A stretch of 41,045 nucleotides of DNA from Chloroflexota bacterium (lineage in GTDB: Bacteria; Chloroflexota; Anaerolineae; Promineifilales; Promineifilaceae). Of this stretch, positions 1 through 39,590 are shown piece after piece. A program made the translations under genes and the position numbers. The notes beneath the pieces are model-generated. The model had not been told where the DNA came from. It made no database searches and saw only the letters and a list, made by a program, of their open reading frames with translations. Each line of letters opens with the position of its first letter. The first letter of the stretch is position 1. Location of the stretch: the NCBI GenBank assembly GCA_041918535.1, contig JAYRVN010000330.1, positions 1 through 41,045 of the forward strand, written 5' to 3'.

Positions 1-118
1 AAGTCCGCCAGCGCCGGCCCGCGCCCGGCTGGAATTGCTGCGCAACCTGACCGCTATGGCGCAGATAGCCCCGATTCGGCCGATCCGTAACTTTAGCGCG
101 CCGGCTATGGCAACCCAC

Positions 119-2827
119 TCAACGCGTCTCTAGCCCATAGCCATAAGGAAACAGCGGCCCCGCTTCCCCCTCGCCTAAATTGGCGAAGTCAAAGGGGAGT
201 TGGGCGGCAGTGCGCGGCCAGGTGTAGGAAAGTCGGCCGGTGAAAGGCCTATCGCCAAACAGAACATCCGCCACCCCCTGCCCTTCTGTGCCCGGCAGCC
301 ACGCCGCCACCAGCGCATCCCAGTTGCCGATGTCATCCGTGATGATTAGCGGCCGGCCTGAGATTAAGACCACAATCAACTGATCGCACACTTCTTCCAT
401 CCGCGCCAACACCCGCCGATCATTCACCGGCAACCTCAGGTCGGCGCTGTCGCCCAGCCCTTCCGCATACGGCATCTCGCCCACCACACCCAGGCACACG
501 ATGGGTTGGTCGGAGGGCAGGTTTTCAAATCGGCCGAATTTGTCATAGACCACCACGGTATCGGCCGAAACCGTTTTCTGGATAGCCGCTAAAATCGTCG
601 TGCCGGGGGTAATCGCACCGGCCCGACCCTGCCATTCAATCGTCCAGCCTCCCGACTGAATGCCAATATCATCTGCGGCCGCGCCACCCACAAACAACAT
701 CGGCGCATCTTTCCTCAGCGGCAAGATGTCGCCTTCATTCTTCAGCAACACCTGCGATTTCGCCACCGCTTCCCGCGCCACCGCCCGGTGTGCCTCTGAC
801 CCCACCAGCGCCAACTGCGCCGGATCGGAATAAGGCCGCTCAAACAAGCCCATCTCGAACTTCACGGCGAGAATGTTGCCTACCGCCGCATCAATACGTT
901 CCATCGACACATCCCCGGCTTCCACCGCCCGCGTCAGCACGCCAATAAAGCGGTTATAGTCGTAAGGAACCATGTTCATATCTACGCCCGCATTCACAGA
1001 TGTGACCACGGCGACGTAATAGTCGTTGTCAATCTGATCCATCCCAGCCCAGTCGGAGACAATAAAGCCGGTAAAGCCAAGTTCGCCGCGCAACACATCG
1101 GTGAGCAGGTATTGCTGGGCGTGCATTTTCATGCCGCCCCAACTGGAATAGGAAACCATGATACTCCGGGCGCCGGCATCAATAACGGCCGCATACGGCG
1201 GCAAATGCACCGCCCGCAGCGTCGCCTCATCCACCTCAGTCACACCTTGATCCAGCCGGTAACTGCCCGTGGTGGAGCTATCCCAGGCCGTGCCGCCATC
1301 GCCCACAAAGTGCTTGGGGGTCGCCAGCACCGCGCCCGGCGCGGCCAGGTCATCCCCTTGCAAGCCTTGCAAAAAGGCCGTCGCTAACGCGCTCACCAAC
1401 GCCGTGTTTTCGCCATACCCTTCGTAGGTGCGTCCCCAACGAATATCTTGCGGCACGGCCACTACCGGCGCGTAATCCCAGTAGATGCCGGTGGCGATCA
1501 TCTCTGCGGCCGTCACCCGGCCAATTTGCTGCATCAAAGCGGGATCATTGGCCATGCCCAGGCCAATATTCTGCGGGAAAATGACCGCGCCGGCGACGTT
1601 GTTGTGTCCATGCACGGCATCTACGCCATAAATCAACGGGATGCCCAGCCGTGTCTCCAGCGCATTCGCCTGGAAGCCGTCAACCATCTCAGCCCACTTC
1701 TCCGGTGTGTTGGGATTGGGATAGCCGCCGCCGCCGCTCAGCAGTCCGCCGATGTAACGCGCCCCAATGTCGTCGGGATTGATGCTGCCTTTTTCTACCA
1801 GCGTCATCTGTCCGATTTTTTCCGCCAGGGTCATCCGCGCCAACAAATCGCTAACGCGCTCGGCTACCGGCAAAGCGGGGTTTTTGTAGGGCGCATCGGA
1901 CGGCGCCGGGACATAGGTGGGGGCGGGTGTTGGTTGTGGCGCGTTAGGCACCACCGCCGTCTGCCCAATTTCAAAGAAAACAAGCTGCCCAAAAACACTG
2001 GGGTTTTGGTAAGAACTGTCAGATTTGTCGAAGATAGACCAGATCACTTTCAGATCGCGATCCTTTTGAGAGGCGCTGTTCAGGTGGACCTGGAAGCCGA
2101 TAACGTTGCCGTGTTCGCGCTGGATATTCCAGACGCGATTTTTAAGCGGGACGGCCACTTCCAGCGCATATCCCTGGTCGGTATCCACAACCACGGCGCG
2201 CGCATCGGTGGTGTCAACTTGCACGCCGCCTAACACCACTTCTTCCGGCGGTCGTCCGGCATTCAAGGCGGGCACGGTGATTTGGGCGACGCCTTCCTTG
2301 TAAGACGAGAGCTGCAAATCGCCGGTACCATTGATATAAAATTCGGCCGAATCTTCATTCCAATAATTCTCGCCATGCTGCCCGGTGATAATGTTGGCGT
2401 CACTCACATCTGCCATAAAGTAAAGAAACTCATCGTCGGCTGCCGCGGCAAAGGTGATGAACGTTGCGCCCCGCACTTTCGTGGCCGTCGCCGGAACAAC
2501 AACCCGGGGCACACCCGCCCAATCGCCCAAATCCCCATCCAGCGTGATAGCCACAGGGAAAGGCGCATTGTAGGTTTCGCCGGGTATGCCTGGCAGGGCG
2601 AGCAAATTCTCGGCAGGAGCCGCCGCCAATTCCGCCGTTGCTTCTCCCGCTTGTGGCGCCGCTGTTGTCGCGACAACAGCAGCGGCGGTCGTTTCCGGCG
2701 CCGCCGATTGCGGCGTCGCCGTCACTTGCGACCCATTCTGCGCGCCGCCGCAAGCAACCAATGCAATGACTAGTAGTAAAAACGCCAGGGTACAGTCGTT
2801 ACGTTTCAATCTATCCCACATTTTCAT
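119..2827 (-). CDS. Secreted lipoprotein: CBM9-like sugar-binding module fused to a GH3 beta-glucosidase / exo-beta-glucanase
   Basis: 902-aa ORF. The N-terminus ends in a lipobox (LLLVIALVACGG), followed by an Ala/Thr/Pro linker. Residues ~80-285 resemble a CBM9/DOMON-like module (DGDLGDWAGVP, WNEDSAEFYI, GYALEVAVP). GH3 hallmarks: LAEKIGQM, KHFVGDGG, nucleophile context GFIVSDWAGM. Confidence 0.85.
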   Translation of the reverse strand: MKMWDRLKRNDCTLAFLLLVIALVACGGAQNGSQVTATPQSAAPETTAAAVVATTAAPQAGEATAELAAAPAENLLALPGIPGETYNAPFPVAITLDGDLGDWAGVPRVVVPATATKVRGATFITFAAAADDEFLYFMADVSDANIITGQHGENYWNEDSAEFYINGTGDLQLSSYKEGVAQITVPALNAGRPPEEVVLGGVQVDTTDARAVVVDTDQGYALEVAVPLKNRVWNIQREHGNVIGFQVHLNSASQKDRDLKVIWSIFDKSDSSYQNPSVFGQLVFFEIGQTAVVPNAPQPTPAPTYVPAPSDAPYKNPALPVAERVSDLLARMTLAEKIGQMTLVEKGSINPDDIGARYIGGLLSGGGGYPNPNTPEKWAEMVDGFQANALETRLGIPLIYGVDAVHGHNNVAGAVIFPQNIGLGMANDPALMQQIGRVTAAEMIATGIYWDYAPVVAVPQDIRWGRTYEGYGENTALVSALATAFLQGLQGDDLAAPGAVLATPKHFVGDGGTAWDSSTTGSYRLDQGVTEVDEATLRAVHLPPYAAVIDAGARSIMVSYSSWGGMKMHAQQYLLTDVLRGELGFTGFIVSDWAGMDQIDNDYYVAVVTSVNAGVDMNMVPYDYNRFIGVLTRAVEAGDVSMERIDAAVGNILAVKFEMGLFERPYSDPAQLALVGSEAHRAVAREAVAKSQVLLKNEGDILPLRKDAPMLFVGGAAADDIGIQSGGWTIEWQGRAGAITPGTTILAAIQKTVSADTVVVYDKFGRFENLPSDQPIVCLGVVGEMPYAEGLGDSADLRLPVNDRRVLARMEEVCDQLIVVLISGRPLIITDDIGNWDALVAAWLPGTEGQGVADVLFGDRPFTGRLSYTWPRTAAQLPFDFANLGEGEAGPLFPYGYGLETR

Positions 2828-2910
2828 TCTCCCGCGCTAATGTGACGCAGTTTTCTCAGCCGTCCGGCGCTGGCAGATGCCGGGCGATCAAGAAAATCGT
2901 CTCACACAGG

Positions 2911-5574
2911 CTAATTCTTCGCCGCAGCAGCCAATGCATCATTAATAGCCGCCATTTTTACCTCTGTTAGCAATTCCGGCGCAAACGCCGCAATTTGATT
3001 CAGCGTCATACTCAACGCCATGCTTGCTTGTGGATGGTGCAACAAATCGCCTAAATGCGCCTGCAAGACCGCTGCGCCGCGGTCATCGGCCAACAAGGCG
3101 GCCAACGTCAAGCCGGTATGCAAGGCGTCACGTTCTCCACCCCAGGTAAAGCCGACGCGCAGGCAAATGTCCCGCGATGAACGTCCGACCAGGACTTCAA
3201 ATTCACCCGGCTCTGTAACCCATCCAGGCGCGGCCGGATCGTAAAAAGCCAATGATTGCTGGTTCAGATGGAGTGTGACGGTCTTTGTCTCGCCCGGTTC
3301 CAGCGCGACTTTGGCAAAGGCTTTCAGCTCTTGTAATGGTCGCGCCAGCCGCGCTTCCACATCCCGCACATAAACCTGCACCACTTCCTGCCCCATCCGC
3401 GCGCCCGTATTCGTCACATCAACGCTTACAACAATCTCATCGCCTGGAGAAAACCTGTCACTATTCAAACGCAAATGGTCATAAGCAAACGTCGTGTAAG
3501 ATAGCCCGTGTCCAAATGGGAACAACGGCGCAATTCCCTTCTTGTCATAGTAGCGATAACCGACAAAAATGCCTTCGCCATACTGCACTTTGCCGTTTTC
3601 GCCAGGGTAGTTGATGTAAGCCGGGTTGTCTTGCATCCGCTGCGGGAAGGTGGTTGGCAGCTTCCCCGATGGATTGACATCGCCAAACAACACATCGGCC
3701 AGCGCATTGCCCGCCTCCTGCCCACCGTACCACTGTTGCAGCGCCGCCGGAACCGTCTCCAGCCAGGGCATCACCACGGGCGATCCCACGTTGAGCACAA
3801 CCACGGTGCGGGGATTGACTGCAGCGACACGGGCGATCAATTCGTCTTGTCGGCCGACCAGATGCAAATCGGGCCGGTCAAAACCTTCGCTTTCCCACTC
3901 CTTTGTTAACCCGGCCACGACAATGGCTACATCAGCCTGCGCCGCCAAGTCTACGGCCACTTGAATGGGATCGGCGGGCAATTCGGGCAGACAGCTCAAC
4001 TGGAGCATCCGCCAGCGGGCTTGTGGGAGGGTGGCGTATTCGACGACCAGTTGATACGGCCGTTCCGCTTCCAACAACAAACTCACCTGCTGCATAGACT
4101 GACCATCGTTCACGTTGGCCTGCTCCTCACTGTCAAGCTGCACCACGCCATCCAACAGCAGGCGGCTGTGTCCAATGCTCGCCAGGTGCAGTTCATATAC
4201 CCGGCTCTCCGGCACAGTCAACGTGCCGCTCAAGCGCAGCGAGAAATTCGCCGGATCCACATAAGGATTCACCATACCAAACCAGGAAAGCGCGCTCTTC
4301 TGCACCACCGCAGTGTGCGTAGGCATCCCAGACAACGTCAAATTATCAAAATAGGTTAATGTCAATCCCCGACTTGTCCCATCGGCCGCCGTTAACCAGG
4401 CGGGGTCCAACAGTGGCGGCATTTGGTGAATGGGACATCCAATGGCATAAACAACCTGCGCGGCTTCACCCACCCGCGCTTGAATGCCTGCTAACGGCGA
4501 CACAACATAGTGCGGATTGATAGCAGCGCTGCCGCCGCCCATAATTTGCGCCCATTTCGCGTTTTCCCCAATGACAGCAATGGTTTTCACTTCTGTCAGG
4601 TTAATGGGCAGGAGTTGCTGCTCGTTTTTCAACAGCACAATCGCTTCAGCCGCCACGGCGCGGGCCAATTGACGATCTTCTGGCCGGTCCACAGCCTGAA
4701 CTGCGGGTTGTGCTGGCGCAAATGCGCCTACGCGCTCCATCAGGCGCAGTAAACGGCGCACTTTGTCATCAATCACTGTCTCATCCAGCCGACCTAACGC
4801 CACCAGGGCGATGATCTTTTCCGGGTTCATCCAGCGCGCCGGGCCGGGCATCTCCAAATCAAGGCCGCCCGCGGGCACAGCCTCGGTGTACGTGCCGTAC
4901 CAATCCGATATGACCAACCCATCATAATTCCACTCCCCCTTCAAGATATCCCGCAGAGTGATATCGTTCTCGCTGGCAAATACGCCGTTCACGCGATTGT
5001 AGGCGCTCATGATGCTCCACGGATTTGCCCTCTGGACGGCGATGCGGAACGGCTCCAGGTAAATCTCTCGCAATGGCCGTTCTGTTACCTCCGCGCTAAT
5101 GGACTGGCGCTCAAACTCCTGGTCATTGCACACAAAATGTTTGATGCACGCAGCCACGCCCTGGCTTTGCAAGCCATTGATGTATGCGGCGGCCGTCACG
5201 CCGCTGAGATAGGGGTCTTCGGCAAAACATTCAAAATTGCGGCCGGCGTTGGGTGTGCGGTGAATATTGACCGTAGGCGCCAGCAGCACATGTCCACCTT
5301 TCGCTCGCGCCTCCGCGGCCAGCTTCATGCCGACCCGCCGGATCAGGTCAGGGTTCCAGGTCGCGCCCATAGCCACGCCCACGGGAAAGCACATGGAGGT
5401 CGAGCCCAAATTGTCATCAGCGCCGCGCGCACCGTTGGGGCCGTCAGTTACTCTGATGGCAGGGATACCCAGGCGGGGGACCGGACGGGTAGACCACATA
5501 TCCACCCCGGCCAACAAGGAAACCTTCTCGACCAGGCTGAGTTGGGCGATGAGTGTGTTGATTGTGTGTTCCAT
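2911..5574 (-). CDS. Cytoplasmic GH3 beta-glucosidase with PA14 insertion and C-terminal Fn3-like domain
   Basis: ORF 2911..5613. I moved the start to ATG 5574 (MEHTINTLIAQLSLVEKV) because AAGGAAG lies just upstream. GH3 motifs KHFVCNDQE and VISDWYG. PA14-like segment (LTYFDNLTLSG...LHLASIGHSRLLLDG). Fn3-like segment (VSVDVTNTGARMGQEVVQVYV). No signal peptide. Confidence 0.85.
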   Translation of the reverse strand: MEHTINTLIAQLSLVEKVSLLAGVDMWSTRPVPRLGIPAIRVTDGPNGARGADDNLGSTSMCFPVGVAMGATWNPDLIRRVGMKLAAEARAKGGHVLLAPTVNIHRTPNAGRNFECFAEDPYLSGVTAAAYINGLQSQGVAACIKHFVCNDQEFERQSISAEVTERPLREIYLEPFRIAVQRANPWSIMSAYNRVNGVFASENDITLRDILKGEWNYDGLVISDWYGTYTEAVPAGGLDLEMPGPARWMNPEKIIALVALGRLDETVIDDKVRRLLRLMERVGAFAPAQPAVQAVDRPEDRQLARAVAAEAIVLLKNEQQLLPINLTEVKTIAVIGENAKWAQIMGGGSAAINPHYVVSPLAGIQARVGEAAQVVYAIGCPIHQMPPLLDPAWLTAADGTSRGLTLTYFDNLTLSGMPTHTAVVQKSALSWFGMVNPYVDPANFSLRLSGTLTVPESRVYELHLASIGHSRLLLDGVVQLDSEEQANVNDGQSMQQVSLLLEAERPYQLVVEYATLPQARWRMLQLSCLPELPADPIQVAVDLAAQADVAIVVAGLTKEWESEGFDRPDLHLVGRQDELIARVAAVNPRTVVVLNVGSPVVMPWLETVPAALQQWYGGQEAGNALADVLFGDVNPSGKLPTTFPQRMQDNPAYINYPGENGKVQYGEGIFVGYRYYDKKGIAPLFPFGHGLSYTTFAYDHLRLNSDRFSPGDEIVVSVDVTNTGARMGQEVVQVYVRDVEARLARPLQELKAFAKVALEPGETKTVTLHLNQQSLAFYDPAAPGWVTEPGEFEVLVGRSSRDICLRVGFTWGGERDALHTGLTLAALLADDRGAAVLQAHLGDLLHHPQASMALSMTLNQIAAFAPELLTEVKMAAINDALAAAAKN

Positions 5575-5681: not shown

Positions 5682-8600
5682 CTAAATGGCCGTGACGACG
5701 CGCACCAACCGAATTAGCCCGTCGCGGTCGAAAATGTGCCGGGCGGTAGGGGCATCCAAATATGTCCCGGCAATGCGTTGCGATAGGCCATCGGCATAAA
5801 CCACCTCAACGCTCGGTCTGTTGCCGCGAGTGTAGATGATGGGCGTCTGGCAAAGGGTGAAGGCCAGCGAACGGCTGGGCAACGGCGCTGTTTGGTGACT
5901 ACCGGTTGTGTCAATATAGGTAAAAGTGCTCGTCTCGGACAAGAACTCGTCGCTTCGCAGCAGATGCGGCGCGAAATGTAACGCTCCCTGGCGCACAGCC
6001 ACGCCCAATTCTCCCCAGCGTGTGAGGATTTCCTCTTTTACCTGGCCGGTCATGCCCGGCTGGCGCGCGCCGCCGCCCGCGGGGGTGTGAGAATAGGGAT
6101 CGGTGGGGAATGCACCATACACAGCGGGCGGTTTGTTAAAACCCAGGCCCTGGCGAATATCGTGATAGGCAGTCGCCAGAGCCGCCGTAAGGGCTGTGTC
6201 TGCGCCGCAACTGACTGCCGCCGTGTAACATTCCTGGGTAGCCAGGAGCAGTTTTGCCACCATGTGCCAGTAAACGCTGCCCAACCCCTCGTAGGCAAAA
6301 AAGGCGCCAGAACGGCCGGTAAACTGGTGATGATTAAACACCCTTTCAAACAACTCAAGAATGAAGGCGCGCTCGGCGGCTACCAGGTCGGCATAGATGG
6401 GTTCTTGCGCCAGGGCGGCCAGCACACGCATGACATCATGGATATTGCGGAAGGTCCCGTTGAAATGATAAACGCCTGCGTCGTCTTGGCTGAGCAGGCG
6501 CGTGTCGCCGCCCGCGGTCAGCGCGGCCACCCAGGGTGAGCCGGCGACCAGGCCGGCGGTCACCTTGTTCTTTTGGCGGAAGCCCGGCAACACGCGATTG
6601 GGATAGAGCATGTAGGTATGTTGGTCGGCGCGGTATAGGTCGCTGCGGCGCAAGCTGTGTAGCAGTGTCAGCGCGTCGTTGGCTGTTAACATTCCGGAGG
6701 AAAGCACGGCGACCTGGCCCTCTAACATCAGGTAGAGATTCTCGACGGTTGCGCCATTCTCATCTAAGCGCAGGGTGTTATAGGCATGGTAAAGACCATC
6801 GGAGCGTCGGTTGGCCCGCAGCGTTTGCTCAATGTAAGCCTGCGCCAATGTCAGAAAGTCGCGCAATGTCTGCCCGGTAATTTGAGCTTGCGCCTGCGGG
6901 AATCTAGCCTGGTAAATTGTTGTCCGGTAGGCAGTGGCAACAGCCCCCAGATTGTCTAGCATAGCCCGCCGCGCTTGGGCATTGAAGCCGGTTTCCAGGT
7001 AAGCTTGGTGCTCAGCAAAAATGGTTTGCACGGCGTCGAAAAGGGTGGCTACCGCCGTGTTCACTGCAAATGTCACGGCTTCAGCCCCGGTCAACTGCGC
7101 CTGCCAAAAAGCGATGAAGCGGCGCAGGTAAGCCACAGTCACCACAGACAGCCCTTTCCCCACCAACGCATTGTTGGCGTCGTTCCATTCCGGGCGCTGC
7201 GTGTTCATCCAAATGCCCCCCTCCGGCGCCAGATTGACGAGCTTGGCCAGCAGCAGCATCAGAAGCTTTTCTAGCATGGTGACGTGGATAACGTTGCCGT
7301 TGGCGTCGCGCAGCAAACGACCGTCAGCGCCCATGTCGGCAACGGCTTCTCCCGTCACCTGTTCACTCTCCCAATCAAAATCAATGGTGTTAGACCAGTC
7401 GGCCAGCATTTCTTGGTAGGGGTGCTGCCGGTAAGGCACGTTGGCATAGGAAAAGATGGCGGAGTTCCAGAGACGCGAGAGTGCGCCCGGATACACCTGA
7501 TCGGCGATTTCCAGCAGTTTTTGCAGGTAAATGATCTGGTGGTCGCTCCAATAGCCAATGTTTGCCCACAAATTGTTTGGGTCTGGCACTTCCCATTCGA
7601 CACCGTCGCGGGTGACCCGATAAGGATTGTAGCCATCGGCGGTAGTCGCGTTCAGGAATTTGGCGATCAGCCCTTCGATATAGGCCGGAAAGGATTGCAC
7701 CAGCGGTTCCCAATTCTGGAAGATGTCGCGCCAGTTGCCCTGGTAATCAAGCCGGGGGGAGCCATCCGGATGTTTGAGGTTGATGGTAAAGCGATTCCAG
7801 GGGCGGCTGGGGTCGCCATGACGGCGGCTGAAGGTAAGGGGCAGATATTCGTAGCAGAGACGAATCAGGTCGGGCACGTGGGTGGCGGCGGCGCGCGCAT
7901 ACAGGTCGCCGATAGTAAGCTGATCGGGCAGGGCGGCGAACCAGTCGGCAAAGGTATTGAGTACATGGCGGTTGCGCGCCTGTATGAAGGCCAGCAGGTC
8001 GCTTCGGTCTAGTGTGTAACCTTCGGCAAAGACTCCGCCGCGCATGATATTGAAGAGTACGTTGGCGAAGTGGTGGGTGGTGATGGATTTATCGGCCGAA
8101 ATTTGTAATCCATCCGCCGCCGCCACATAATTAATCAGGTCGGCCGTTCCCTGCGCAATATCATCTTCAAGCTGCCGATCAATCGCGGCACGATCCTCGC
8201 CGAGCAAACATATCAGACGTGTAATGGCTGCGCTATCCTGGTTAACGTCGGCCACAATATGCCAGGCACGGGTCTGACCCGCGGACAGCGTGAAGGCCGA
8301 GCTAACCAGGTAAGCACCCGCTTTGCCCCGCACATCATATTCCGGCGTCAATGGTAGGCCGCGGCGAAAGACATCAAGCTGGTCTGAGGAAAGCAAAAAA
8401 GAGCTATTGTCTAGCCCCACTTGCCAGGCGACAGTCGCCTGAAGGGATTCGCTCGGTTCGGCCCGGTCGGTGGGAGTTGCGCTCAGGGTGAAAATGCCCA
8501 GACCAGTAGCGGGGTCCAATTCATTGCGCTTATAGGCGTGAAGTAAATTACTGAGCGACGTTTGCATGGCCGAAGTGACGCCATAAGGCAGCAGGTTTTG

Positions 8601-10120: not shown

Positions 10121-10132
10121 CGCACAACCTCG

Positions 10133-16703: not shown

Positions 16704-16760
16704 CTAGGCGTAGGGTGGTGAAAGAAAGCGTTTCGGCCGATACGAGTGGAACCTCTCATT

Positions 16761-19511: not shown

Positions 19512-19600
19512 GCCTGTTTGCACGCCGTCGCTTGTCCTATTCACACCCAACCAACCCATCGGCCGAATTTTCTGCGGGGTGTCTTGGCGATGGGCGTTTT

Positions 19601-19626
19601 GGCGCGGATTCGGCCGAATCCACGCC
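19601..19626. repeat. 26-nt near-perfect palindrome centred on TCGGCCGA, between the convergent lacI-type and MFS genes
   Basis: GGCGCGGATTCGGCCGAATCCACGCC has 12 of 13 paired positions. It lies 10 nt beyond the MFS stop codon. It could act as a bidirectional stem-loop, but no U-tract is present. Confidence 0.5.
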
Positions 19627-27977: not shown

Positions 27978-28074
27978 GGCAACATCCAACGACAAAACGG
28001 ATAACGGCGCGCCTGTATTATCGCATACAATCTGGGGAAGGAAAGCGAAATACAACGTTGCGCGGCGGGGGATG

Positions 28075-31356: not shown

Positions 31357-31407
31357 CTCCCCGCCTCACCCGCCAAGAGAGGGGCCGAAAGATGCGTATC
31401 GGCCGAT

Positions 31408-33324: not shown

Positions 33325-35832
33325 ATGCAAGCATTGACCGGCCTAACCCAACAGGAAGTTGAAGAGCGACGGCAGCGCGGTCAGGGCAACCACGTGCGCC
33401 TCGGCGCGAGCCGCTCGTATTGGAGCATTGCGCGGGCCAATCTCTTCACCTTCTTCAATAATATTTTGTTCCTCATCGGCCTCGCCCTGATTGCTATGGG
33501 CCAGGTCTTGGATGCCGTCACCAGCGTGGGGCTGGGACTGGTTATTGCCATCATCGGCACGCTGCAAGAAATTTGGGCCAAGCGCAAGCTGGATCAGATC
33601 GCGCTGCTCAACCGTCCCACCATCACCGTACGACGTGACGGGCGCGAACACACCCTTGATCCGGCCGAACTGGTACAAGGGGATGTAGTGCGCGTGCGCG
33701 CGGGGGACCAGATCGTGGTGGACGGCCAATTGGTGGGGGACGGCCGGCTGGAGATGGACGAATCGCTGCTCACCGGCGAGGCGGATTTGATTAGCAAGCA
33801 GGCCGGCGACGCCTTGTTATCAGGCAGCGTGTGCGTCACCGGCGATGCCTATATGCTGGCGGAGCGGGTCGGCCTGAACAGTTACGCCAATCAGTTGACG
33901 GCCGCCGCGCGCACATTTCAAGTGGTCGCCACCCCATTGCAGCGCAAGATCAACTTTATTGTGCGCGTGGTGATGTTGGCGGTGGCGCTGATGAGCGTCA
34001 TCATCTTTCTGACGGCGCTGCTGGAAGATTTGCCCCTCATCCGGTTGGTGCAATTGGCGGCGGTCTTGACCGGCCAGGTGCCGTATGGCCTCTTTCTGAC
34101 AGTGGTGATCGCTTATTCGATTGGGGCTTCGTTTTTGTCGCAACGCGGCGCGCTGGTGCAACAGGTTAACGCCATTGAGTCGTTGAGCCATGTGAATGTG
34201 CTGTGTATGGACAAGACGGGCACGCTGACGGCCAACCGCATCCGCTATGCTGAAATGCAAGTTTTCGGCCGATTGTCACAAGCCGTCGTTGAAGCCCATC
34301 TGGGCGCTTTTGTCGCCAGCGCCTCAACCACCAATCGCACCGGCGAAGCGATTGCCGCGGCCCTGCCCAGCCCGCGCTTCACATCGGTAGATGAGGTGCT
34401 ATTCGCCTCGGCGCGCAAGTGGAGCGCGCTGGCGTTTGACACCCCGGAGATACGCGGCGTCTATGTGTTGGGGGCGCTGGAGATGTTGCAGCTCTATTTG
34501 CCGGCCGAGTGGCTGGAGCCGACCGGTCCGCTACACGCCCAGGTGCGCCAGTGGTCGGAAGCCGGCTTGCGCGTGCTGCTGCTGGCCCATAACCCGGGCG
34601 TGACCAGTCTGCATGACGCCGCCGGACAACCTTGCTTGCCGGATTTGGAGCCGTTGGCGCTGGTCTCTTTGCGCGATGAGTTGCGCCCGCAAGCGGCGGA
34701 GACCATCGCCGCTTTTACCCGGTTGGGCATTCGGATCAAGCTGATCTCGGGCGACAATCCCCAGGCGGTGGCGGCGTTGGCGCGCCAGGTGGGGATGGCG
34801 GGCGAATTGCAGTTGGTGTCGGGGCCGGAGTTGGCGCAGATGGATTCGGCCGAATTTGATCGCGCCGCCGACGAAGCCACCATTTTCGGCCGAATTTCGC
34901 CCGAACAAAAAGAGCAACTGGTCATGGCCCTGGCCGATCAAGGCTATTATGTCGCCATGATGGGCGACGGCGTCAATGATGTGCTGTCGGTCAAAAAGGC
35001 CCGGCTGGGCATTGCCATGCAGAGCGGCAGTATGGCTACGCGCAACGTGGCCGACATGGTGCTCTTGGATGACTCCTTTGCGGCGCTGCGGCCCGCCTTT
35101 GACGAGAGCGCCCGCATCGTCAACGGCATGTCGGCGGCGCTGCACCTGTATATCGCGCGGGTCGCCACCACCATGCTGCTGATCATGGCCATCACCATGG
35201 TGGGACTTAGCTTCCCCTTCGAGCCGGCGCAAGTGGCCCTAACGCTGTTCACCGTGGGCATTCCATCGCTCTTCACAACCTGGCTGGCCCATACGCCCGT
35301 GGCCGACAAGGATTTGCTGCGCTCGCTGGCGCGTTTTGTGCTGCCGGTAGCCACCGTGACGATGTTGCTGGGGGTGGTACTCTACACAGGGTTATATACC
35401 AGGCTGCTCAACGACATCACATCGGCCGATATTCCGCCGCGTGTGCTGCACAGTTTTGAAGAATACACCGGTCTGACTTACACCGTAGACGACGCCTTCG
35501 GCAGCGCAGCGGCCACCATTGTGGCTCAGACCGGCCTTTCGATCTTCATTTCTTATACCGCCTTTCTGCTGATCGTCTTTTTGGAGCCGCCCCATCCCTT
35601 CTTCACCGGTTGGGCAGTGGTAAGCCAAGACCGCCGGCCGACGTGGTTGGCGGCGGGATTGGCGCTGGCCTTCACCGGCGTGATTAGCGCGCCCAACCTG
35701 GGGGCTTATTTTGGGCTGTTCCGGCCCGGTCCGCTATTGGTGCTCGGCATTGGGGTGTTGCTGCCGGTGTGGTTCTTCACCGTGCGCGCGATCTGGCGTT
35801 CACATCTGTTCGATCGGATTTTCAGTTGGTGA
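33325..35832 (+). CDS. P-type ATPase (cation-transporting type, substrate unassigned)
   Basis: 835-aa ORF. Actuator motif LLTGEAD, phosphorylation motif CMDKTGTLT (34210..34224), hinge MMGDGVNDVLSVKKARLGIAM. The M4 motif reads VPYGLF (34081..34092) instead of PEGL or CPC. No N-terminal metal-binding domain. Confidence 0.85.
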   Translation: MQALTGLTQQEVEERRQRGQGNHVRLGASRSYWSIARANLFTFFNNILFLIGLALIAMGQVLDAVTSVGLGLVIAIIGTLQEIWAKRKLDQIALLNRPTITVRRDGREHTLDPAELVQGDVVRVRAGDQIVVDGQLVGDGRLEMDESLLTGEADLISKQAGDALLSGSVCVTGDAYMLAERVGLNSYANQLTAAARTFQVVATPLQRKINFIVRVVMLAVALMSVIIFLTALLEDLPLIRLVQLAAVLTGQVPYGLFLTVVIAYSIGASFLSQRGALVQQVNAIESLSHVNVLCMDKTGTLTANRIRYAEMQVFGRLSQAVVEAHLGAFVASASTTNRTGEAIAAALPSPRFTSVDEVLFASARKWSALAFDTPEIRGVYVLGALEMLQLYLPAEWLEPTGPLHAQVRQWSEAGLRVLLLAHNPGVTSLHDAAGQPCLPDLEPLALVSLRDELRPQAAETIAAFTRLGIRIKLISGDNPQAVAALARQVGMAGELQLVSGPELAQMDSAEFDRAADEATIFGRISPEQKEQLVMALADQGYYVAMMGDGVNDVLSVKKARLGIAMQSGSMATRNVADMVLLDDSFAALRPAFDESARIVNGMSAALHLYIARVATTMLLIMAITMVGLSFPFEPAQVALTLFTVGIPSLFTTWLAHTPVADKDLLRSLARFVLPVATVTMLLGVVLYTGLYTRLLNDITSADIPPRVLHSFEEYTGLTYTVDDAFGSAAATIVAQTGLSIFISYTAFLLIVFLEPPHPFFTGWAVVSQDRRPTWLAAGLALAFTGVISAPNLGAYFGLFRPGPLLVLGIGVLLPVWFFTVRAIWRSHLFDRIFSW

Positions 35833-35937
35833 GGTGGATCGGCTGCCGGAAGGGGGCGGCGATGGGGCAAGTTTTCGGCCGAATCCTCCCCGCCCTGCCC
35901 CGACCATTCACCCCGAATCTGGTATACTGGATATGCC

Positions 35938-37749
35938 ATGAGCAGTTCCGAGGCCGTCGTTCCCGCCCCCATTCGCTTCGACCAACCGAATACCCCGCGC
36001 ATCCTGTGGCGCGCCATGACCTACCTCAGCCCTTACCGGCGCATCGTCGGCGGGGCCTACCTGGCTACACTGGGCATCAATGCCCTGGCGCTGCTCATCC
36101 CCCAGCTCATCCGCCAGGGCGTAGATGTGGGTATTCGCCAGGATAATGGGGCGGTCTTAGGCCGGTCGGTGCTGGCGCTGCTAGGGCTGACGCTGCTCAA
36201 AGGGGGTCTGAACTACTGGCAAGGGCTCTGGACGGAGGTCGCGTCGCAGGGGGTGGCCTATGACCTGCGCAACGCCATCCATCGCAAGCTGGCCGGCCTT
36301 TCCTTTTCTTATCATGATCACGCCGAGACGGGGCAACTACTCTCGCGCTCGGTGCAGGATGTGGAGCGCATCCGCTTTCTGACGGGGCGGGCGTCGCTGC
36401 GGCTAATCGAAGGCAGTGTGCTGCTGCTGGGCACGGCCGTGGTGTTGCTAGTAATGAATCCGCGCCTGGCGCTGCTGACGCTGCTGGCGATGCCTTTTCT
36501 GACACAGCGCGCGTATGCATTCGGCCGATTATTTCGGCCGCTTTCCTTGGCCATCCAGCAGCAGTTGGCCTTCCTGACCACAACGCTGGAGCAAAACCTG
36601 CGTGGGGCGCGTATCGTCAAGGCGTTTGCGCAGGAGGAAGAGGAGATAGAGCGATTCGGCCGAAAAAATCGCATCTGGTTTGACCTCTCCGCCCGTTCCA
36701 TCCGCCTGCAAGCCCTCAATGTCCCCCTGCTCGACTTCATCGCCAATCTGTCCGTCGTCGTTGTCATCTGGTATGGCGGCTTGCTTGTCATCCGGGATCA
36801 ACTCACCCTGGGCGAACTCGTCGCCTTCTCCACTTACCTGGGGCAGCTCGTCCAGCCCGTGCGCCGCCTGGGCATGATCACCCCCGCCATCGCCATGGCC
36901 GCCGCCGCCGGCGAGCGCATCTTTGAAATCCTCGACGCCGGCTCCGAAGTCGTCGAAAGGCCCGACGCCTACCCCCTTCCCCCCGTGCAAGGCGCCGTGC
37001 GCTTCGAGAACGTTTCCTTCGGCTATGTGCGCGGCCACCCCGTCTTGCGCGACGTCAGCTTCGAAGCGCAGCCGGGCCAGATCATCGCCCTGCTGGGTGC
37101 CACCGGCTCCGGCAAATCCTCCATCATCAACCTCATCCCCCGCTTCTACGACCCCACCGCCGGGCGCATCACCCTCGACGACCACGACCTGTGCGATGTG
37201 ACGCTGGCCTCGCTGCGCGGACAGATCGGCATTGTGCTGCAAGAAAGCACCCTCTTCGTCGCCAGCATCCGCGAGAATATCGCCTTTGGCCGCCCTGAAG
37301 CGGAAGAGGCTGACATTGTGGCGGCGGCGCAAGCCGCCCAGGCTCACGACTTCATCATGGCGCTGCCACAAGGCTACAACACGCCGGTCGGTGAGCGCGG
37401 CATCACTCTCTCCGGCGGCCAGCGGCAGCGCATCGCCATCGCCCGCGCCCTGCTCAAAGACCCGCGCATTCTCATCCTCGACGACGCCACCGCCAGCGTG
37501 GACACCGAAACCGAGCGCCTGATCCAGTTAGCCCTGGCGCGCCTGATGCAGGGCCGCACCGCCTTTGTCATCGCCCAACGGCTCAGCACTGTGCGCCAGG
37601 CCGACCTGATCCTGGTGCTGGATCAGGGACGCATCGCCGCCGGCGGCGCACATCCCGATCTGTTGCAGACATCCCCTATCTATGCCGACATTTTTCATCG
37701 GCAGCTCCGACCGGCCGCCCAGCCCCAAGCGGCGGAGCGTGCGCCATGA
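35938..37749 (+). CDS. ABC exporter fused TMD-NBD subunit (degenerate Walker B partner)
   Basis: 603-aa ORF. Walker A GATGSGKSS and signature LSGGQRQR. Walker B is ILILDDATASVD, with Asp in place of the catalytic Glu. The stop overlaps the next gene's start (ATGA at 37746..37749). Confidence 0.88.
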   Translation: MSSSEAVVPAPIRFDQPNTPRILWRAMTYLSPYRRIVGGAYLATLGINALALLIPQLIRQGVDVGIRQDNGAVLGRSVLALLGLTLLKGGLNYWQGLWTEVASQGVAYDLRNAIHRKLAGLSFSYHDHAETGQLLSRSVQDVERIRFLTGRASLRLIEGSVLLLGTAVVLLVMNPRLALLTLLAMPFLTQRAYAFGRLFRPLSLAIQQQLAFLTTTLEQNLRGARIVKAFAQEEEEIERFGRKNRIWFDLSARSIRLQALNVPLLDFIANLSVVVVIWYGGLLVIRDQLTLGELVAFSTYLGQLVQPVRRLGMITPAIAMAAAAGERIFEILDAGSEVVERPDAYPLPPVQGAVRFENVSFGYVRGHPVLRDVSFEAQPGQIIALLGATGSGKSSIINLIPRFYDPTAGRITLDDHDLCDVTLASLRGQIGIVLQESTLFVASIRENIAFGRPEAEEADIVAAAQAAQAHDFIMALPQGYNTPVGERGITLSGGQRQRIAIARALLKDPRILILDDATASVDTETERLIQLALARLMQGRTAFVIAQRLSTVRQADLILVLDQGRIAAGGAHPDLLQTSPIYADIFHRQLRPAAQPQAAERAP

Positions 37750-39590
37750 GCTTCTCCATCGGTTCGGCCGGCATCAACGTCGGGCCGCGCGGCGCCCTGG
37801 AAAGCTTCGGCGAAGAGGCGGAAACGCGCCCCCTGGATGCGCGCATCTTGTGGCGCTTGCTGGCCTTTGTGCGCCCGCATTGGCAACGCATGGCGCTGGC
37901 CCTGATCCTGACGTTGGCCGGCTCGGCCCTGACCCTGCTGACCCCCTACCTGCTGAAGGTGGCGATTGATCAGCATATCGTCAACGGCGATGCGCGCGGG
38001 CTGGCGCGCACGGCGGGGCAACTGCTGGCGGCCTTTGCCGGCATCTACCTGACCGCAGCCGGACAGCAGTACCTGCTCGGCTGGGTGGGGCAGCAGGTGC
38101 TGGCGACGCTGCGCGCGCAGTTGTTTGAGCATTTGCAGCGCCTATCCCTGGGCTATCACGATACCCACATCGTCGGCGTGACCATTTCGCGGGTGATCAA
38201 CGATGTGGCCGTCATCAATGAACTGCTCTCGCAAGGGGTGGTGCAACTGGTGGGGGACAGCCTGGTGTTGATGGGCATCGTGGGCATCATGCTGAGCATG
38301 AGTCCGCGCCTGGCGCTGCTGACCTTCCTCACCCTGCCGCTGATGGCGCTGGCAACGATTCTGTTCGCGCGGCGGGCGCAGGTAGCCTTTCGCCAAACGC
38401 GTCGGCGCATCGCCGAAGTGGTAGGCGACCTGGCGGAAAATATCGCCGGCATCCGCGTCATCCAGGCCTTCGCCCAGGAAGCGGCGGCGCGGGAGCGTTT
38501 TGACGAGGTGAATCGGGCTAACCGCGACGCCTATGTCGAGGCAATGTCCTTGTCGTTCATCTTTTTGCCCTCGGTGGAGTTTCTGGGCATGTTGGCGACG
38601 GCGATTGTGTTGTGGTTTGGCGGGCGCTGGGTGGCGCAGGGGGAATTGACACTGGGGGTGATGGTGGCCTTTTTGGCCTATGTCAGCCGCTTCTTCGGGC
38701 CGATCCAGGAACTAAGCCAGCTTTATACCACCTTGCAGGCGGCAGTGGCGGGCGGCGAGCAGGTGTTGCGCCTGTTGGACACGCCGCCGGAAGTGCAGGA
38801 CGCGCCTGAGGCAGGCGCTATGCCGCCGATTCAAGGGCGCATTGACTTGCAAGGGGTGTCGTTCGCCTACCGCGACGGCGACCCGGTGTTGCGCAACGTG
38901 GAGCTGACGATTGAGCCGGGCCAAATGGTGGCGTTAGTGGGGCCGACAGGGGCGGGCAAGACATCCATTGCCAATCTGGTGGCGCGTTTTTATGATGTGA
39001 CGGCGGGGGCGGTGTTAATTGACGGGGTGGATGTGCGAACGGTGCGACAGCGTTCGTTGCGGGCGCAGATGGGGTTGGTGCCGCAAGAGCCATTTCTGTT
39101 TGCGGGGACGGTGGCGGAGAATATCGGATTCGGCCGAATCCACGCCTCCGACGCCGAACTCACCCAGGCCGCCCAGGTTGCCAACGCCGACGCCTTCATC
39201 CGCGCCCTCCCCGACGGCTACCAGACCGCCGTCCTCGAAGGCGGCGTCAACCTCTCCCTCGGCCAGCGCCAGCTCATCTGCATCGCCCGCGCCGTCCTGG
39301 CCGACCCGCGCATCCTCATCCTCGACGAAGCCACTGCCAGTGTAGACACTCTGACCGAAGCGCTCATTCAAGCCGCCCTGGAGCGCCTGTTAGCGCAGCG
39401 CACCTCGCTGGTCATCGCCCACCGCCTCAGCACCGTGCGCCACGCCGACCTGATTTGCGTGCTGCAAGACGGCCAGATTGTAGCCCGCGGCCGCCATGAC
39501 GACCTCCTGGCCCAGGGCGGCCTCTACCGCCAACTCTACGAGCAACAATTCCTCCAGCGCGAAGAGCCAACCGCCAGGCCCCTTGATTGA
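37746..39590 (+). CDS. ABC exporter fused TMD-NBD subunit (canonical Walker B partner)
   Basis: 614-aa ORF. Walker A GPTGAGKTS and Walker B ILILDEATASVD. The signature is non-canonical: LSLGQRQL. Confidence 0.88.
   Translation: MSFSIGSAGINVGPRGALESFGEEAETRPLDARILWRLLAFVRPHWQRMALALILTLAGSALTLLTPYLLKVAIDQHIVNGDARGLARTAGQLLAAFAGIYLTAAGQQYLLGWVGQQVLATLRAQLFEHLQRLSLGYHDTHIVGVTISRVINDVAVINELLSQGVVQLVGDSLVLMGIVGIMLSMSPRLALLTFLTLPLMALATILFARRAQVAFRQTRRRIAEVVGDLAENIAGIRVIQAFAQEAAARERFDEVNRANRDAYVEAMSLSFIFLPSVEFLGMLATAIVLWFGGRWVAQGELTLGVMVAFLAYVSRFFGPIQELSQLYTTLQAAVAGGEQVLRLLDTPPEVQDAPEAGAMPPIQGRIDLQGVSFAYRDGDPVLRNVELTIEPGQMVALVGPTGAGKTSIANLVARFYDVTAGAVLIDGVDVRTVRQRSLRAQMGLVPQEPFLFAGTVAENIGFGRIHASDAELTQAAQVANADAFIRALPDGYQTAVLEGGVNLSLGQRQLICIARAVLADPRILILDEATASVDTLTEALIQAALERLLAQRTSLVIAHRLSTVRHADLICVLQDGQIVARGRHDDLLAQGGLYRQLYEQQFLQREEPTARPLD
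39526..39582 (+). repeat. Direct repeat, left copy (3' end of the ABC exporter gene)
   Basis: accgccaactctacgagcaacaattcctccagcgcgaagagcc... matches 40032..40086. The first 43 nt match at 40 of 43 positions by manual alignment. Confidence 0.75.

Follow-up and report, generated by a model that had tools for sequence, protein, structure and literature searches.

A HIP1-like, highly iterated CGGCCG-core palindrome in a Chloroflexota contig and its relatives

Introduction

Why should a single palindromic octamer, TCGGCCGA, recur throughout a 41-kb contig of a Chloroflexota bacterium, probably one of the Anaerolineae, in spacers as well as within genes? The stretch analyzed here, termed the window, is the entire 41,045-nt contig JAYRVN010000330.1. 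A preliminary description, made from its letters alone, had likened the octamer to HIP1 (GCGATCGC), the highly iterated palindrome (HIP) of cyanobacteria, and had proposed a DNA-level genome signature. What HIP1 does has remained a puzzle for three decades (PMC5861425; 10.64898/2026.06.24.733823; for background, see also PMC4390886 and PMC6105098), partly because the signature looked peculiar to a single phylum; a second HIP family in another phylum turns HIP function into a comparative question. Our data base comprised the 41-kb window and about 20 related loci of 5–23 kb each, with cyanobacterial loci as positive control (HIP1 at 1–3 copies/kb). The loci L068, L020, L044, and L069 were picked via one extended motif copy, their further copies being independent of this choice. 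Named homologues all belong to Chloroflexota.

Results

Abundance of the octamer

An exact recount reproduced the 29 copies reported initially (707 per Mb; Table 1) and 28 of their start coordinates; the copy assigned to 8091 in fact starts at 8092. The window has a GC content of 60.7% (local range 52 to 73%), and the preliminary estimate of about 1–2 copies expected from base composition held up: dinucleotide-preserving shuffles of the window yielded 1.32 copies (sd 1.24, maximum 5), and Markov models of orders 0–3 predicted 1.2–2.3 (O/E 13–22 for expectations of 1.3–2.3). The maximal-order (order 6) Markov model suggested for verification predicted 16.7 copies versus the 29 observed, an expectation that is so high only because TCGGCCGA itself raises the counts of the 7-mers that overlap in it. 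With the codon-shuffled null, likewise suggested, the excess remained, as synonymous-codon shuffling within genes gave 2.46 ± 1.49 copies (maximum 8 in 1000 runs) versus 23 coding copies. Among the 256 palindromic octamers, TCGGCCGA was the sole outlier in 85 kb of pooled related DNA (75 copies versus 3.3 expected, O/E ~20; runner-up palindrome O/E 2.7); in the window alone, the second-commonest palindromic octamer reached 17 copies. When CGGCCG hexamers of the window were sorted by their outer bases, T..A accounted for 29 and each of the remaining combinations for at most 8. HIP1 proper (GCGATCGC) did not rank among the window's 15 most frequent palindromic octamers.

Table 1. Positions of the octamer TCGGCCGA, its sister word, and a motif-free gene in the window. 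L133 and L142, close relatives; L195–L198, loci discussed in the text.
Feature	Position	Context	Frame, peptide	Remarks
TCGGCCGA	76..83	intergenic, downstream of GH3-CBM9 gene
TCGGCCGA	530..537	GH3-CBM9 gene (- strand)	1, F-G-R
TCGGCCGA	561..568	GH3-CBM9 gene	0, S-A-D
TCGGCCGA	2343..2350	GH3-CBM9 gene	0, S-A-E
TCGGCCGA	3850..3857	GH3-PA14 gene	1, V-G-R	sole copy with G/C flanks
TCGGCCGA	8092..8099	GH149 beta-1,3-glucan phosphorylase gene	0, S-A-D	L195–L198 without the word here
TCGGCCGA	10945..10952	CBM11-Calx-GH16 gene	0, S-A-D
TCGGCCGA	13636..13643	CBM11 domain repeat	0, S-A-E
TCGGCCGA	14152..14159	paralogous CBM11 repeat		516 bp from 13636 and not independent of it
TCGGCCGA	16733..16740	intergenic, between ABC permease and solute-binding protein genes
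TCGGCCGA	19559..19566	intergenic, between convergent LacI and MFS genes
TCGGCCGA	19610..19617	between convergent genes		apex of 28-bp imperfect palindrome (hairpin); full GGATTCGGCCGAATCC
TCGGCCGA	21594..21601	dienelactone hydrolase gene (+)	0, S-A-E
TCGGCCGA	28410..28417	DA1-like gene (-)	2, R-P
TCGGCCGA	28850..28857	DA1-like gene	0, S-A-E
TCGGCCGA	30044..30051	ABC-A gene (-)	0, S-A-D	kept in L133
TCGGCCGA	31326..31333	ABC-A gene, N-terminus	2, R-P	L133 not alignable here
TCGGCCGA	31399..31406	intergenic, ABC-A/ABC-B
TCGGCCGA	32177..32184	ABC-B gene	0, S-A-E	kept in L133 and L142
TCGGCCGA	32523..32530	ABC-B gene	2, R-P	kept in L133 and L142
TCGGCCGA	32770..32777	ABC-B gene	1, I-G-R	word in L142; TCGGCCGC in L133
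TCGGCCGA	34265..34272	P-type ATPase gene (+)	1, F-G-R	word in L142; TCGGCCGC in L133
TCGGCCGA	34846..34853	P-type ATPase gene	0, S-A-E	word in L142; GCGGCTGA (A-A-E) in L133
TCGGCCGA	34886..34893	P-type ATPase gene	1, F-G-R	word in L133; TCGGACGC in L142
TCGGCCGA	35422..35429	P-type ATPase gene	0, S-A-D	window only; relatives ACGGCCCA (T-A-Q/H), so the gain altered amino acids
TCGGCCGA	35875..35882	intergenic, P-type ATPase/ABC-C
TCGGCCGA	36521..36528	ABC-C gene (+)	1, F-G-R	TCGGCCGT in L133
TCGGCCGA	36656..36663	ABC-C gene	1, F-G-R	kept in L133
TCGGCCGA	39130..39137	ABC-D gene (+)	1, F-G-R	kept in L133; full GGATTCGGCCGAATCC
ACGGCCGT	4056..4063			further starts 9295, 10920, 13264, 13363, 31583, 36433
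TIR-CHAT-STAND-TPR gene	23613..28241 (-)	within motif-free stretch 21602–28409		72% GC, GC3 0.86

Placement, flanks, and near-matches

The copies are distributed over 14 unrelated genes and six intergenic sites and use all three reading frames, encoding S-A-E/D (12 copies), x-G-R (8), or R-P (3), in agreement with the initial account and its peptide examples. The word occupies 23 of the 56–59 positions compatible with the encoded peptide (~40–48% of permitted places filled), and 12 of the 18 S-A-E/D tripeptides of the window are spelled with it. TCGGCCGA uses CGA and A/T flanks despite a CGA share of only 6% among Arg codons and a GC3 of 0.72. The CBM11 domain repeats that hold the copies at 13636 and 14152 are paralogous, which leaves 28 independent copies. 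In the TIR-CHAT-STAND-TPR gene, none of 8 peptide-compatible positions carries the word versus 23 of 48 elsewhere (P ~0.005); this gene is probably recently acquired DNA.

A or T was found on both sides of 28 of the 29 copies, the same number as before, the exception being the copy at 3850 (gTCGGCCGAc). GAT or ATC half-flanks are frequent, and the extended consensus reads GATTCGGCCGAATC, although the complete 14-mer is present in the window at 19610 and 39130 only. Flank information stops at position −3, and the similarity between copies is gone about 3 bp beyond the core. The many 7-of-8 variants described earlier exist as a count (32 one-off variants in the window) but not as an excess, since in pooled related DNA such variants were at or below expectation, with O/E 0.45–0.54 at inner positions. 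C-to-T variants were depleted no more than other one-off variants, so that an origin by deamination or by very-short-patch repair receives no support.

Repeat families around the sites spanned only 20–34 nt at 74–85% identity, and 79% of the copies in the window reside inside genes with the reading frame intact. The preliminary description had named an excess confined to one repeated mobile sequence as the outcome that would speak against its proposal; instead, the copies share no sequence past about 3 bp from the core. A few copies are embedded in longer palindromes (at 19610 in the window; GGGAGGATTCGGCCGAATCCTCCC in L068). Separately, in an unrelated Planctomycetota MAG, two contigs share one identical palindrome of 24 bp.

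Turnover and conservation at orthologous sites

Codon alignments with L133 and L142, close relatives at 82–84% ATPase identity, revealed no indels at TCGGCCGA sites and 1–4 substitutions at orthologous positions lacking the motif. Gain and loss thus occur by point substitution, in part with amino acid changes (LSQAV/LSHAE to LSAEE, TTAQI to TSADI). Orthologous positions carry either the intact word or a widely different sequence, one-off states being few. TCGGCCGA was kept at 6 of 11 orthologous sites versus a background of 21% (P=0.014), and at 5 of 8 sites with identical peptide versus 33%; this test covers 11 sites, and the stronger result comes from the sister word ACGGCCGT in other lineages. 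There, 43–78% of orthologous positions were kept versus 6–13.5% background (P 1e-6 to 1e-9), and where the peptide was identical all sites were kept (7/7, 9/9, and 13/13, i.e. 29/29) versus 20–28%. Conservation therefore exceeds what the coding constraint explains, which had been posed as a check on the proposal.

Lineage distribution, sister word, and phages

TCGGCCGA is limited to certain lineages. It occurs 17 times per 22.5 kb in L133 and 8 times per 5.4 kb in L142, while the Anaerolineae MAG loci L068 and L020, which harbor unrelated housekeeping-type genes, contain 13 and 8 copies in 8 kb; overall, the density is 0.7–1.6 copies/kb in close relatives and in further MAGs of Anaerolineae (those named being JAUIAP01 and JAMLHW01), and density was similar in all loci sampled from motif-bearing lineages. 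Relatives at 61–65% identity have 0–2 copies per 14–22 kb.

The syntenic loci L195, L197, and L198, derived from Ca. Leptofilum, an Ardenticatenaceae MAG, and another Chloroflexi MAG (named relatives: GCA_017988735.1, GCA_020634245.1, and a 6.36-Mb Ca. Leptofilum contig), carry 43, 27, and 34 copies of ACGGCCGT per 23 kb (1.2–1.8/kb), at positions differing from those of TCGGCCGA in the window. The window itself has 7 copies of ACGGCCGT versus 1.4 expected. Beyond what the preliminary description had noted, TCGGCCGA is one variant of a CGGCCG-core family, replaced by ACGGCCGT in neighboring lineages and their phages. In IMG/VR, 38 loci have ACGGCCGT at ≥1/kb, some of these contigs possibly including host flanks, and one of these loci, a genuine phage fragment that encodes a portal protein and a large terminase, has 42 copies in 13.8 kb; phage loci reach 2–3.7/kb, exceeding the host level. 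In the integrative element L166, WCGGCCGW appears 29 times in 9.2 kb. Members of the family are built alike, with the CGGCCG core followed outward by 2–3 A/T and then G: the extended form is GATT-CGGCCG-AATC in the lineage of the window and GGAAA-CGGCCG-TTTCC in Ca. Leptofilum, Ardenticatenaceae relatives, and many of their phages.

Discussion

The findings favor the HIP1-like, DNA-level signature put forward initially: the excess survives the codon null, is specific to one octamer, is linked to no mobile unit, turns over by substitution, and is conserved at orthologous sites. We consider it very probable that TCGGCCGA is a true HIP, accumulated by base substitution and then kept, whatever the DNA encodes. 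Its assignment to the HIP class is made with high confidence, as it is the top palindromic octamer, hyper-abundant, dispersed, spread by substitution, and conserved between orthologues. As in the case of HIP1, the word is perfectly palindromic over its 8 bp and leads the palindromic octamers as their only outlier; it uses all frames and spacers, has an extended consensus that is also palindromic, shows a patchy lineage distribution, and shares the inner hexamer pattern CGRYCG (CGGCCG versus CGATCG). Its density of 0.7–1.6/kb, at O/E ~18–40, compares with 0.3–2.7/kb for HIP1 (PMC4390886). Spread by substitution rather than insertion is attributed to HIP1 in the literature (cited in PMC6105098, ref 45), and orthologous HIP1 sites are kept above controls, synonymous positions included (PMC5861425); HIP1-dense viral contigs exist as well. 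Differences lie in the sequence, which is distinct from GCGATCGC and lacks the internal GATC, in the flanks (A/T-rich versus G..C in HIP1), and in the phylum, Chloroflexota instead of Cyanobacteria.

Related cyanobacteria swap palindromes while keeping the core (Elhai 2015, PMC4390886; 10.64898/2026.06.24.733823). The alternative HIPs TCGATCGA, GGGATCCC, and CAGGCCTG, the last with a GGCC core, resemble in this respect TCGGCCGA and ACGGCCGT with their common CGGCCG; moreover, CAGGCCTG of Synechococcus PCC 6312 likewise contains GGCC, and TCGATCGA has the outer T-CG...CG-A in common with TCGGCCGA. However, all those described are cyanobacterial and none equals TCGGCCGA or ACGGCCGT, which moreover occupy different orthologous positions. 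We found no earlier report of this CGGCCG-core family with its lineage-specific variants; the HIP signature has so far been described only in cyanobacteria (HIP1). On balance, we lean toward a second, independently evolved HIP family in Chloroflexota (Anaerolineae, including Ardenticatenaceae-/Leptofilum-type lineages) that comprises TCGGCCGA, ACGGCCGT, and WCGGCCGW variants, with synonymously frozen sites and denser representation in phages.

Such a family would provide a natural experiment, as related Chloroflexota have TCGGCCGA, ACGGCCGT, or neither (T..A, A..T, none), and a methyltransferase, repair enzyme, uptake factor, or nucleoid protein tracking these three states would be a prime candidate; comparative genomics might in this way find the recogniser and hence HIP function. 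A function confined to mismatch repair in the host or to the uptake of DNA would not lead one to expect denser words in phages than in hosts, nor would guidance of repair obviously do so. The words may also be used as lineage marks in metagenome binning and phage–host assignment, flag recently acquired DNA, and matter for restriction-enzyme choice and DNA construct design for Anaerolineae, a common group in activated sludge and sediments.

The HIP1 core CGATCG is methylated by M.Ssp6803I/DmtC, and DmtA and DmtC are cognate methyltransferases of HIP1. For the Chloroflexota word, the twofold symmetric consensus of 10–14 bp, along with an outer base pair that changes between related lineages, suggests that a DNA-recognition protein binds it as a dimer, being lineage-specific and drifting in its specificity. 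By analogy with HIP1, a CGGCCG-context DNA methyltransferase would be the likeliest candidate, to which we give roughly even chances; our confidence in a methyltransferase mechanism for TCGGCCGA is low to moderate. Either the methylation mark or the site as such might then serve a genome-wide role in self-DNA marking, repair guidance, or recombination, with selection or biased conversion keeping the sites perfect. The only published methylomes of Anaerolineae that we found, those of CL500-11, list GANTC, TTAA, and GCWGC, not CGGCCG, SMRT being poor for m5C (PMC6329791). No gene for a DNA methyltransferase, Vsr, or a restriction enzyme was detected in the window, L133, L068, L020, or L195–L198. 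An N4-cytosine methyltransferase of a phage was followed up as a lead and rejected, as it was MvaI/BcnI-associated.

A methyltransferase-linked bias can raise its own target word, as known for Dcm and Vsr-dependent very-short-patch repair in E. coli (CCWGG-related). The sites might accordingly be functionless, a neutral by-product of biased repair or conversion that turns near-matches into perfect sites in whatever DNA replicates in these cells, and repair-linked HIP origins have been discussed (Elhai 2015, PMC4390886). The under-representation of inner one-off variants and the scarcity of one-off states at orthologous positions would be in line with such a process, as would the occurrence of the word in phages and the integrative element and its lack in a compositionally foreign gene. 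We nevertheless regard this as unlikely: the depletion is not specific to C-to-T/G-to-A variants, contrary to the T/G-derived depletion that a Vsr-type process predicts, the E. coli effect is few-fold compared with 20–40-fold for TCGGCCGA, and density in phages exceeds that in the host. The lack of a Vsr or methyltransferase gene in host loci also points away from it, although weakly because little DNA was surveyed.

About equally unlikely, in our estimation, is that the word is a site for an abundant chromosome-organizing protein or a Chi-like stop for a host helicase-nuclease that shields the DNA, which phages would gain from carrying. The Chi and chromosome-architecture octamers that are known lack symmetry, show strand bias, and have a much lower O/E, whereas a palindrome cannot be strand-biased, and no candidate protein was identified. 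Yet the symmetric 12–14-bp consensus with its A/T-rich shoulders resembles a dimeric-protein site, phage fragments carry 2–3.7 copies/kb, and Chi is likewise known to vary in sequence by lineage. A structural, nucleoid-related role has been proposed for HIP1 (PMC5861425).

Slightly less probable still is a role of the word as a self-recognition mark in DNA exchange, favored by uptake or recombination within the same lineage. The resemblance is to the USS of Pasteurellaceae and the DUS of Neisseriaceae, which occur at about 1/kb in all frames, are built up by substitution, and form core-sharing lineage variants, with A/T-rich flanks in the case of USS; TCGGCCGA has all these features and is conserved at orthologous sites. 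Uptake sequences, however, are asymmetric words of 9–12 nt tied to the competence machinery and as a rule scarce in phages and in DNA of recent acquisition, while TCGGCCGA is a perfect palindrome and phages are the densest carriers of the family. Recent preprints suggest such a role for HIP1: according to one, HIP1 makes transformation more efficient, an effect that depends on homology and on methylation (10.1101/2024.09.10.611283), and another correlates HIP1 with a DNA-transfer system (10.64898/2026.06.24.733823).

An origin as a by-product of coding, through a favored peptide, a bias in codons or codon pairs, or the duplication of genes and domains, is refuted by the use of three frames and 6 spacers, the unrelated host genes, the codon shuffle (2.5 expected versus 23), the rare CGA codon and A/T flanks at a GC3 of 0.72, and the synonymous positions frozen between species, and is scarcely credible even though 12 copies spell S-A-E/D, 8 spell x-G-R, and two lie in paralogous CBM11 repeats. 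Cores or footprints of a small mobile repeat are just as improbable, and are refuted for the window: REP/MITE-like elements, also palindromic, highly repeated, and dispersed, are conserved intergenic units of 20–300 nt spread by insertion, whereas TCGGCCGA spans 8–14 nt, is mostly genic with the frame kept, lacks an extended repeat unit (similarity ends ~3 bp from the core), and arises by substitution without insertions, with the longer palindromes at 19610 and in L068 (GGGAGGATTCGGCCGAATCCTCCC) and that of the Planctomycetota MAG as the observations on the other side.

Abundance of the palindrome and its independence from coding

An exact search of the 41,045-base window returned 29 copies of TCGGCCGA, as against 1.32 expected from dinucleotide-preserving shuffles of the window (maximum 5) and 1.2–2.3 predicted by Markov models of orders 0 to 3. 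The count and the excess reported in the preliminary description are thereby confirmed, and so are its coordinates, save that the copy placed at 8091 starts at 8092. The maximal-order (order-6) Markov null was discarded, as its high expectation of 16.7 arises because the conditioning 7-mers are mostly fragments of TCGGCCGA itself; the lower Markov orders and the codon shuffles are the informative nulls. Tabulation of the bases around CGGCCG in the window, the G+C content of which is 60.7% with a span of 52–73%, gave T...A 29 times and any other pair at most 8 times, which identifies the octamer as the repeated unit. As already described, A or T stands on both sides of the octamer (28 of 29 copies), and the symmetrised flanks read G-A-T-TCGGCCGA-A-T-C, with no information past position -3. 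When the window was pooled with loci of its two closest relatives (L133, L142) and of two Anaerolineae MAGs (L068, L020), the resulting 85 kb contained 75 copies versus 3.3 expected, and TCGGCCGA was the sole outlier among the 256 palindromic octamers, the second-highest observed/expected ratio (O/E) being 2.7. The copies are not significantly clustered (4 gaps below 100 bp versus about 1.9 expected, from the coordinates).

The excess is not a coding effect. Sites are spread over 14 genes and six spacers of the window, whose gene content begins with a beta-1,3-glucan utilisation locus (see the table), and all three reading frames are used, in agreement with the initial claim: frame 0 accounts for 12 sites (S-A-E/D), frame 1 for 8 (x-G-R) and frame 2 for 3 (R-P). 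A codon-shuffled null, which had been put forward as a check, left the excess in place, with 23 copies in coding DNA compared with 2.46 ± 1.49 (maximum 8, 1000 runs) upon synonymous-codon shuffling within each gene. Twelve of the 18 S-A-E/D tripeptides in the window are written as TCGGCCGA, frame-1 sites require CGA, which makes up 6% of Arg codons, and third positions flanking the motif are A/T despite a GC3 of 0.72; altogether, 23 of the 56–59 peptide-compatible positions are occupied. Intergenic enrichment is weak at best, with 6 of the 29 window copies falling in about 5% of the DNA and 1 of 17 copies in L133 being intergenic.

Neither is TCGGCCGA a mobile repeat. The preliminary description had considered confinement of the excess to one repeated mobile sequence; we found shared similarity to end with the extended consensus, as repeat families including copies of the motif are only 20–34 nt long at 74–85% identity, and the remaining window repeats are protein-domain paralogues. 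Two copies (13636 and 14152) sit in paralogous CBM11 repeats, and the number of independent copies is therefore 28. A hairpin between convergent genes has the copy at 19610 at its apex, and longer palindromes are absent around most intergenic copies in the window. Searching the window against Rfam and for tRNAs gave no matches.

Genes and gene blocks of the window, and loci syntenic with its GH149 region
Feature	Position	Description
Complete beta-1,3-glucan (laminarin-type) locus	119–18286	two GH3, GH149 phosphorylase, two GH16, ABC sugar importer, LacI regulator
GH149 phosphorylase	within 119–18286	NF058639 match, 1582 bits
CBM11 x6–Calx-beta–GH16 protein	within 119–18286	1467 aa, one of the two GH16 enzymes
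Second block		MFS transporter, dienelactone hydrolase, aldo-keto reductase, TIR-CHAT-STAND-TPR protein, DA1-like protein
TIR-CHAT-STAND(NACHT/AAA)-TPR protein	23613–28241, − strand	1542 aa, 72% G+C, in motif-free stretch 21602–28409
Third block		P-type ATPase with four ABC exporters on its flanks
L195	1–23480	Chloroflexi MAG GCA_017988735.1, 43 ACGGCCGT per 23 kb
L197	1–23468	Ca. Leptofilum sp., 6.36-Mb contig in ERZ25072999, 27 ACGGCCGT per 23 kb
L198	1–23381	Ardenticatenaceae MAG GCA_020634245.1, 34 ACGGCCGT per 23 kb

Lineage distribution and the sister word

The evidence comes from the 41-kb window and individual related loci of 5–23 kb. Every named homologue, whether of the ATPase or of the GH149 enzyme, belongs to Chloroflexota (Anaerolineae, Anaerolineaceae, Ardenticatenaceae, Ca. 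Leptofilum, Caldilineaceae, Roseiflexaceae, Herpetosiphonaceae), and the right-hand part of the window has a match in L001, a metagenome contig from ENA with an identical ATPase and the same gene order. The closest relatives, which have an ATPase identity of 82–84% and share the ABC-ATPase-ABC order, carry 17 TCGGCCGA copies in 22.5 kb (L133) and 8 in 5.4 kb (L142); relatives with an ATPase identity of 61–65% have 0–2 per 14–22 kb, which is chance level. A genome scan with the 16-mer GGATTCGGCCGAATCC (one genome per species) yielded, among the matches listed, chiefly single chance hits along with at least 4–5 informative Chloroflexota loci. Among these listed matches, the Anaerolineae MAG loci L068 and L020 hold 13 and 8 copies in 8 kb, amid host genes for a two-component system, a gamma-glutamyltranspeptidase and an oxidoreductase, one Ardenticatenaceae locus holds 4 and one Promineifilaceae locus 3; four supporting loci were thus picked up via the motif itself. 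A metagenome scan by the P-type ATPase retrieved only relatives of 40–51% identity, chiefly cyanobacterial, which are unusable for orthology; as a positive control, the cyanobacterial contigs with such distant ATPase homologues (L101–L124) contained HIP1, GCGATCGC, at 1–3 per kb.

In three loci that keep the gene order around GH149 (L195, L197, L198), TCGGCCGA is nearly absent and the sister word ACGGCCGT, with outer A..T, reaches an O/E of 33–40; a fourth locus (L196) has neither word. Among assemblies, JAUIAP01 and JAMLHW01 represent the TCGGCCGA type, and GCA_016860845.1 and GCA_020634935.1 the state with neither word. The flanks of ACGGCCGT read GGAAA-CGGCCG-TTTCC, the same architecture as GATT-CGGCCG-AATC. 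At orthologous positions, 43–78% of ACGGCCGT sites are identical versus 6–13.5% of other 8-mers (P 1e-6 to 1e-9), at a nucleotide identity of only 63–72%, and where the peptides are identical all sites are unchanged (7/7, 9/9 and 13/13, versus a background of 20–28%). Non-conserved positions are mostly 2–5 changes off, so that a site is intact or else well removed from the word.

The TCGGCCGA sites of the window never fall at ACGGCCGT positions of L195–L198, and the sites of one word are therefore independent of those of the other; at conserved ACGGCCGT positions, the distance of the window sequence from the word is that of ordinary divergence, which is neutral as to decay from former ACGGCCGT sites. 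The window also holds 7 copies of ACGGCCGT versus 1.4 expected (4056, 9295, 10920, 13264, 13363, 31583 and 36433), three of them with the GAT flank typical of TCGGCCGA sites, whereas ACGGCCGT does not occur in L133 or L142, the close relatives. These seven copies may reflect relaxed specificity or may be a relic of an earlier state.

Gain, loss and conservation of sites

Five orthologous genes were codon-aligned with L133 and two with L142. The alignments have zero indels at TCGGCCGA sites, and orthologous positions lacking the motif are 1–4 substitutions away from it. Some gains altered the protein, as in the change from LSQAV/LSHAE to LSAEE in L142 and from TTAQ/HI to TSADI in the window. 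Conservation among orthologues, likewise proposed at the outset as a check, was indeed elevated: 6 of the 11 alignable window sites, a small sample, are identical in L133 versus 21% of other 8-mers (P=0.014), and 5 of 8 versus 33% when only identical peptides are considered. In 110 kb of motif-bearing DNA, inner one-off variants are depleted (O/E 0.45–0.54) with no extra deficit of the C-to-T class, and a deamination or very-short-patch footprint was dropped on this ground. Two one-off decay states were found, too few to type.

The TIR-CHAT-STAND-TPR gene, which adjoins the gene for the DA1-like peptidase, carries the motif at none of its 8 peptide-compatible positions, whereas the remaining genes use 23 of 48 (P ~0.005), and such site use in a gene of 72% G+C is the pattern expected of recently acquired DNA. 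Its product matches defence-system models through the TIR domain only. The gene looks horizontally acquired and is possibly defensive.

Phages, mobile DNA and methyltransferases

The integrative element L166 (IMGVR_UViG_3300048592_000813, 1–9218), which encodes an integrase and a fused polymerase-primase, contains WCGGCCGW 29 times in 9.2 kb, in all four outer-base combinations. Its positions 9024–9218 hold 5 tandem copies of a 45-bp unit, each of them containing ACGGCCGT; this array may consist of iterons or serve for attachment. Scanning viral sequences with GAAACGGCCGTTTC returned 113 stretches, 38 of which carry ACGGCCGT at 1 or more per kb (up to 3.7 per kb); one of these (L286), with portal protein and large terminase genes, has 42 copies in 13.8 kb. 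The word is denser in viral contigs (L199, L202, L286, L282, L308 and about 35 more from IMG/VR, at 1–3.7 per kb) than in host loci, with the caveat that some IMG/VR contigs may include host DNA. The viral scan for pairs of TCGGCCGA gave chance hits in GC-rich phages only and no TCGGCCGA-type phage besides L166. HIP1 reaches at least 1 per kb in at least 22 IMG/VR loci (among L433–L520), and HIP1 therefore has in common with these words that viral or prophage DNA shares it.

Neither the window nor any host locus read contains a DNA methyltransferase or Vsr gene. The motif-dense viral loci encode five DNA methyltransferases in 414 kb (5 of 44 loci), which is not unusual for phages. The best candidate among them, the N4-cytosine-type enzyme of L308, was rejected as the motif enzyme, since it is a member of a very large family partnered with an MvaI/BcnI-type endonuclease. 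This widespread phage family is probably CCNGG-specific, judging from a relative of 76% identity (L432, 10001–11537) whose neighbour is an endonuclease of the MvaI/BcnI family; the contig is unrelated, has 44% G+C and lacks the motif.

Possible reader of the word and relation to HIP1

The constraint described here acts at the DNA level on a symmetric word of 10–14 bp that is made by substitution, kept perfect, lineage-specific, switched between related lineages and common to their phages. Such a word would be read by a dimeric sequence-specific protein, and by analogy with HIP1, whose core CGATCG M.Ssp6803I/DmtC methylates (PMC6105098, PMC4390886), a CGGCCG-context methyltransferase would be the leading candidate, with a role in marking self DNA, in repair or in recombination. 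Possible alternatives are a repair drive that acts neutrally, a self signal of the uptake type, a site for a nucleoid protein, or a protective site resembling Chi. That phages carry the word so densely fits better with a benefit to any resident DNA than with a purely host-repair role.

Every sequence-based property of the HIP class that could be assessed is found in TCGGCCGA; sequence and phylum differ from those of HIP1, making it a member of the class but not HIP1 itself. In the HIP1 literature consulted such palindromes are described in cyanobacteria only, where the variants GGGATCCC, TCGATCGA and CAGGCCTG are on record (PMC4390886; 10.64898/2026.06.24.733823), and HIP1-level abundance has been stated as not seen elsewhere (PMC5861425). 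A full-text literature search, with most subscription journals outside its reach, returned no report that describes TCGGCCGA or ACGGCCGT as iterated and, within the same reach, nothing on Chloroflexi or Anaerolineae combined with HIP terms.

Other repeats

A five-fold 15-bp tandem repeat at 18102–18199 of the window lies inside the gene for the solute-binding protein, in its 5' part, and probably encodes a Gly/Ala/Thr-rich linker behind the signal peptide. A 49-nt direct repeat of 90% identity connects the 3' end of ABC-D (39520–39568) with the start of the next ORF (40016–40064; 157 aa), which suggests a partial duplication or gene remnant. In the 'Planctomycetota' MAG LakeFargette MAG_58_8, the 24-bp perfect palindrome CGAGGGATTCGGCCGAATCCCTCG is identical on two contigs (L056, 546–553; L082, 4904–4911) and looks like a separate repeated hairpin element rather than a dispersed octamer.
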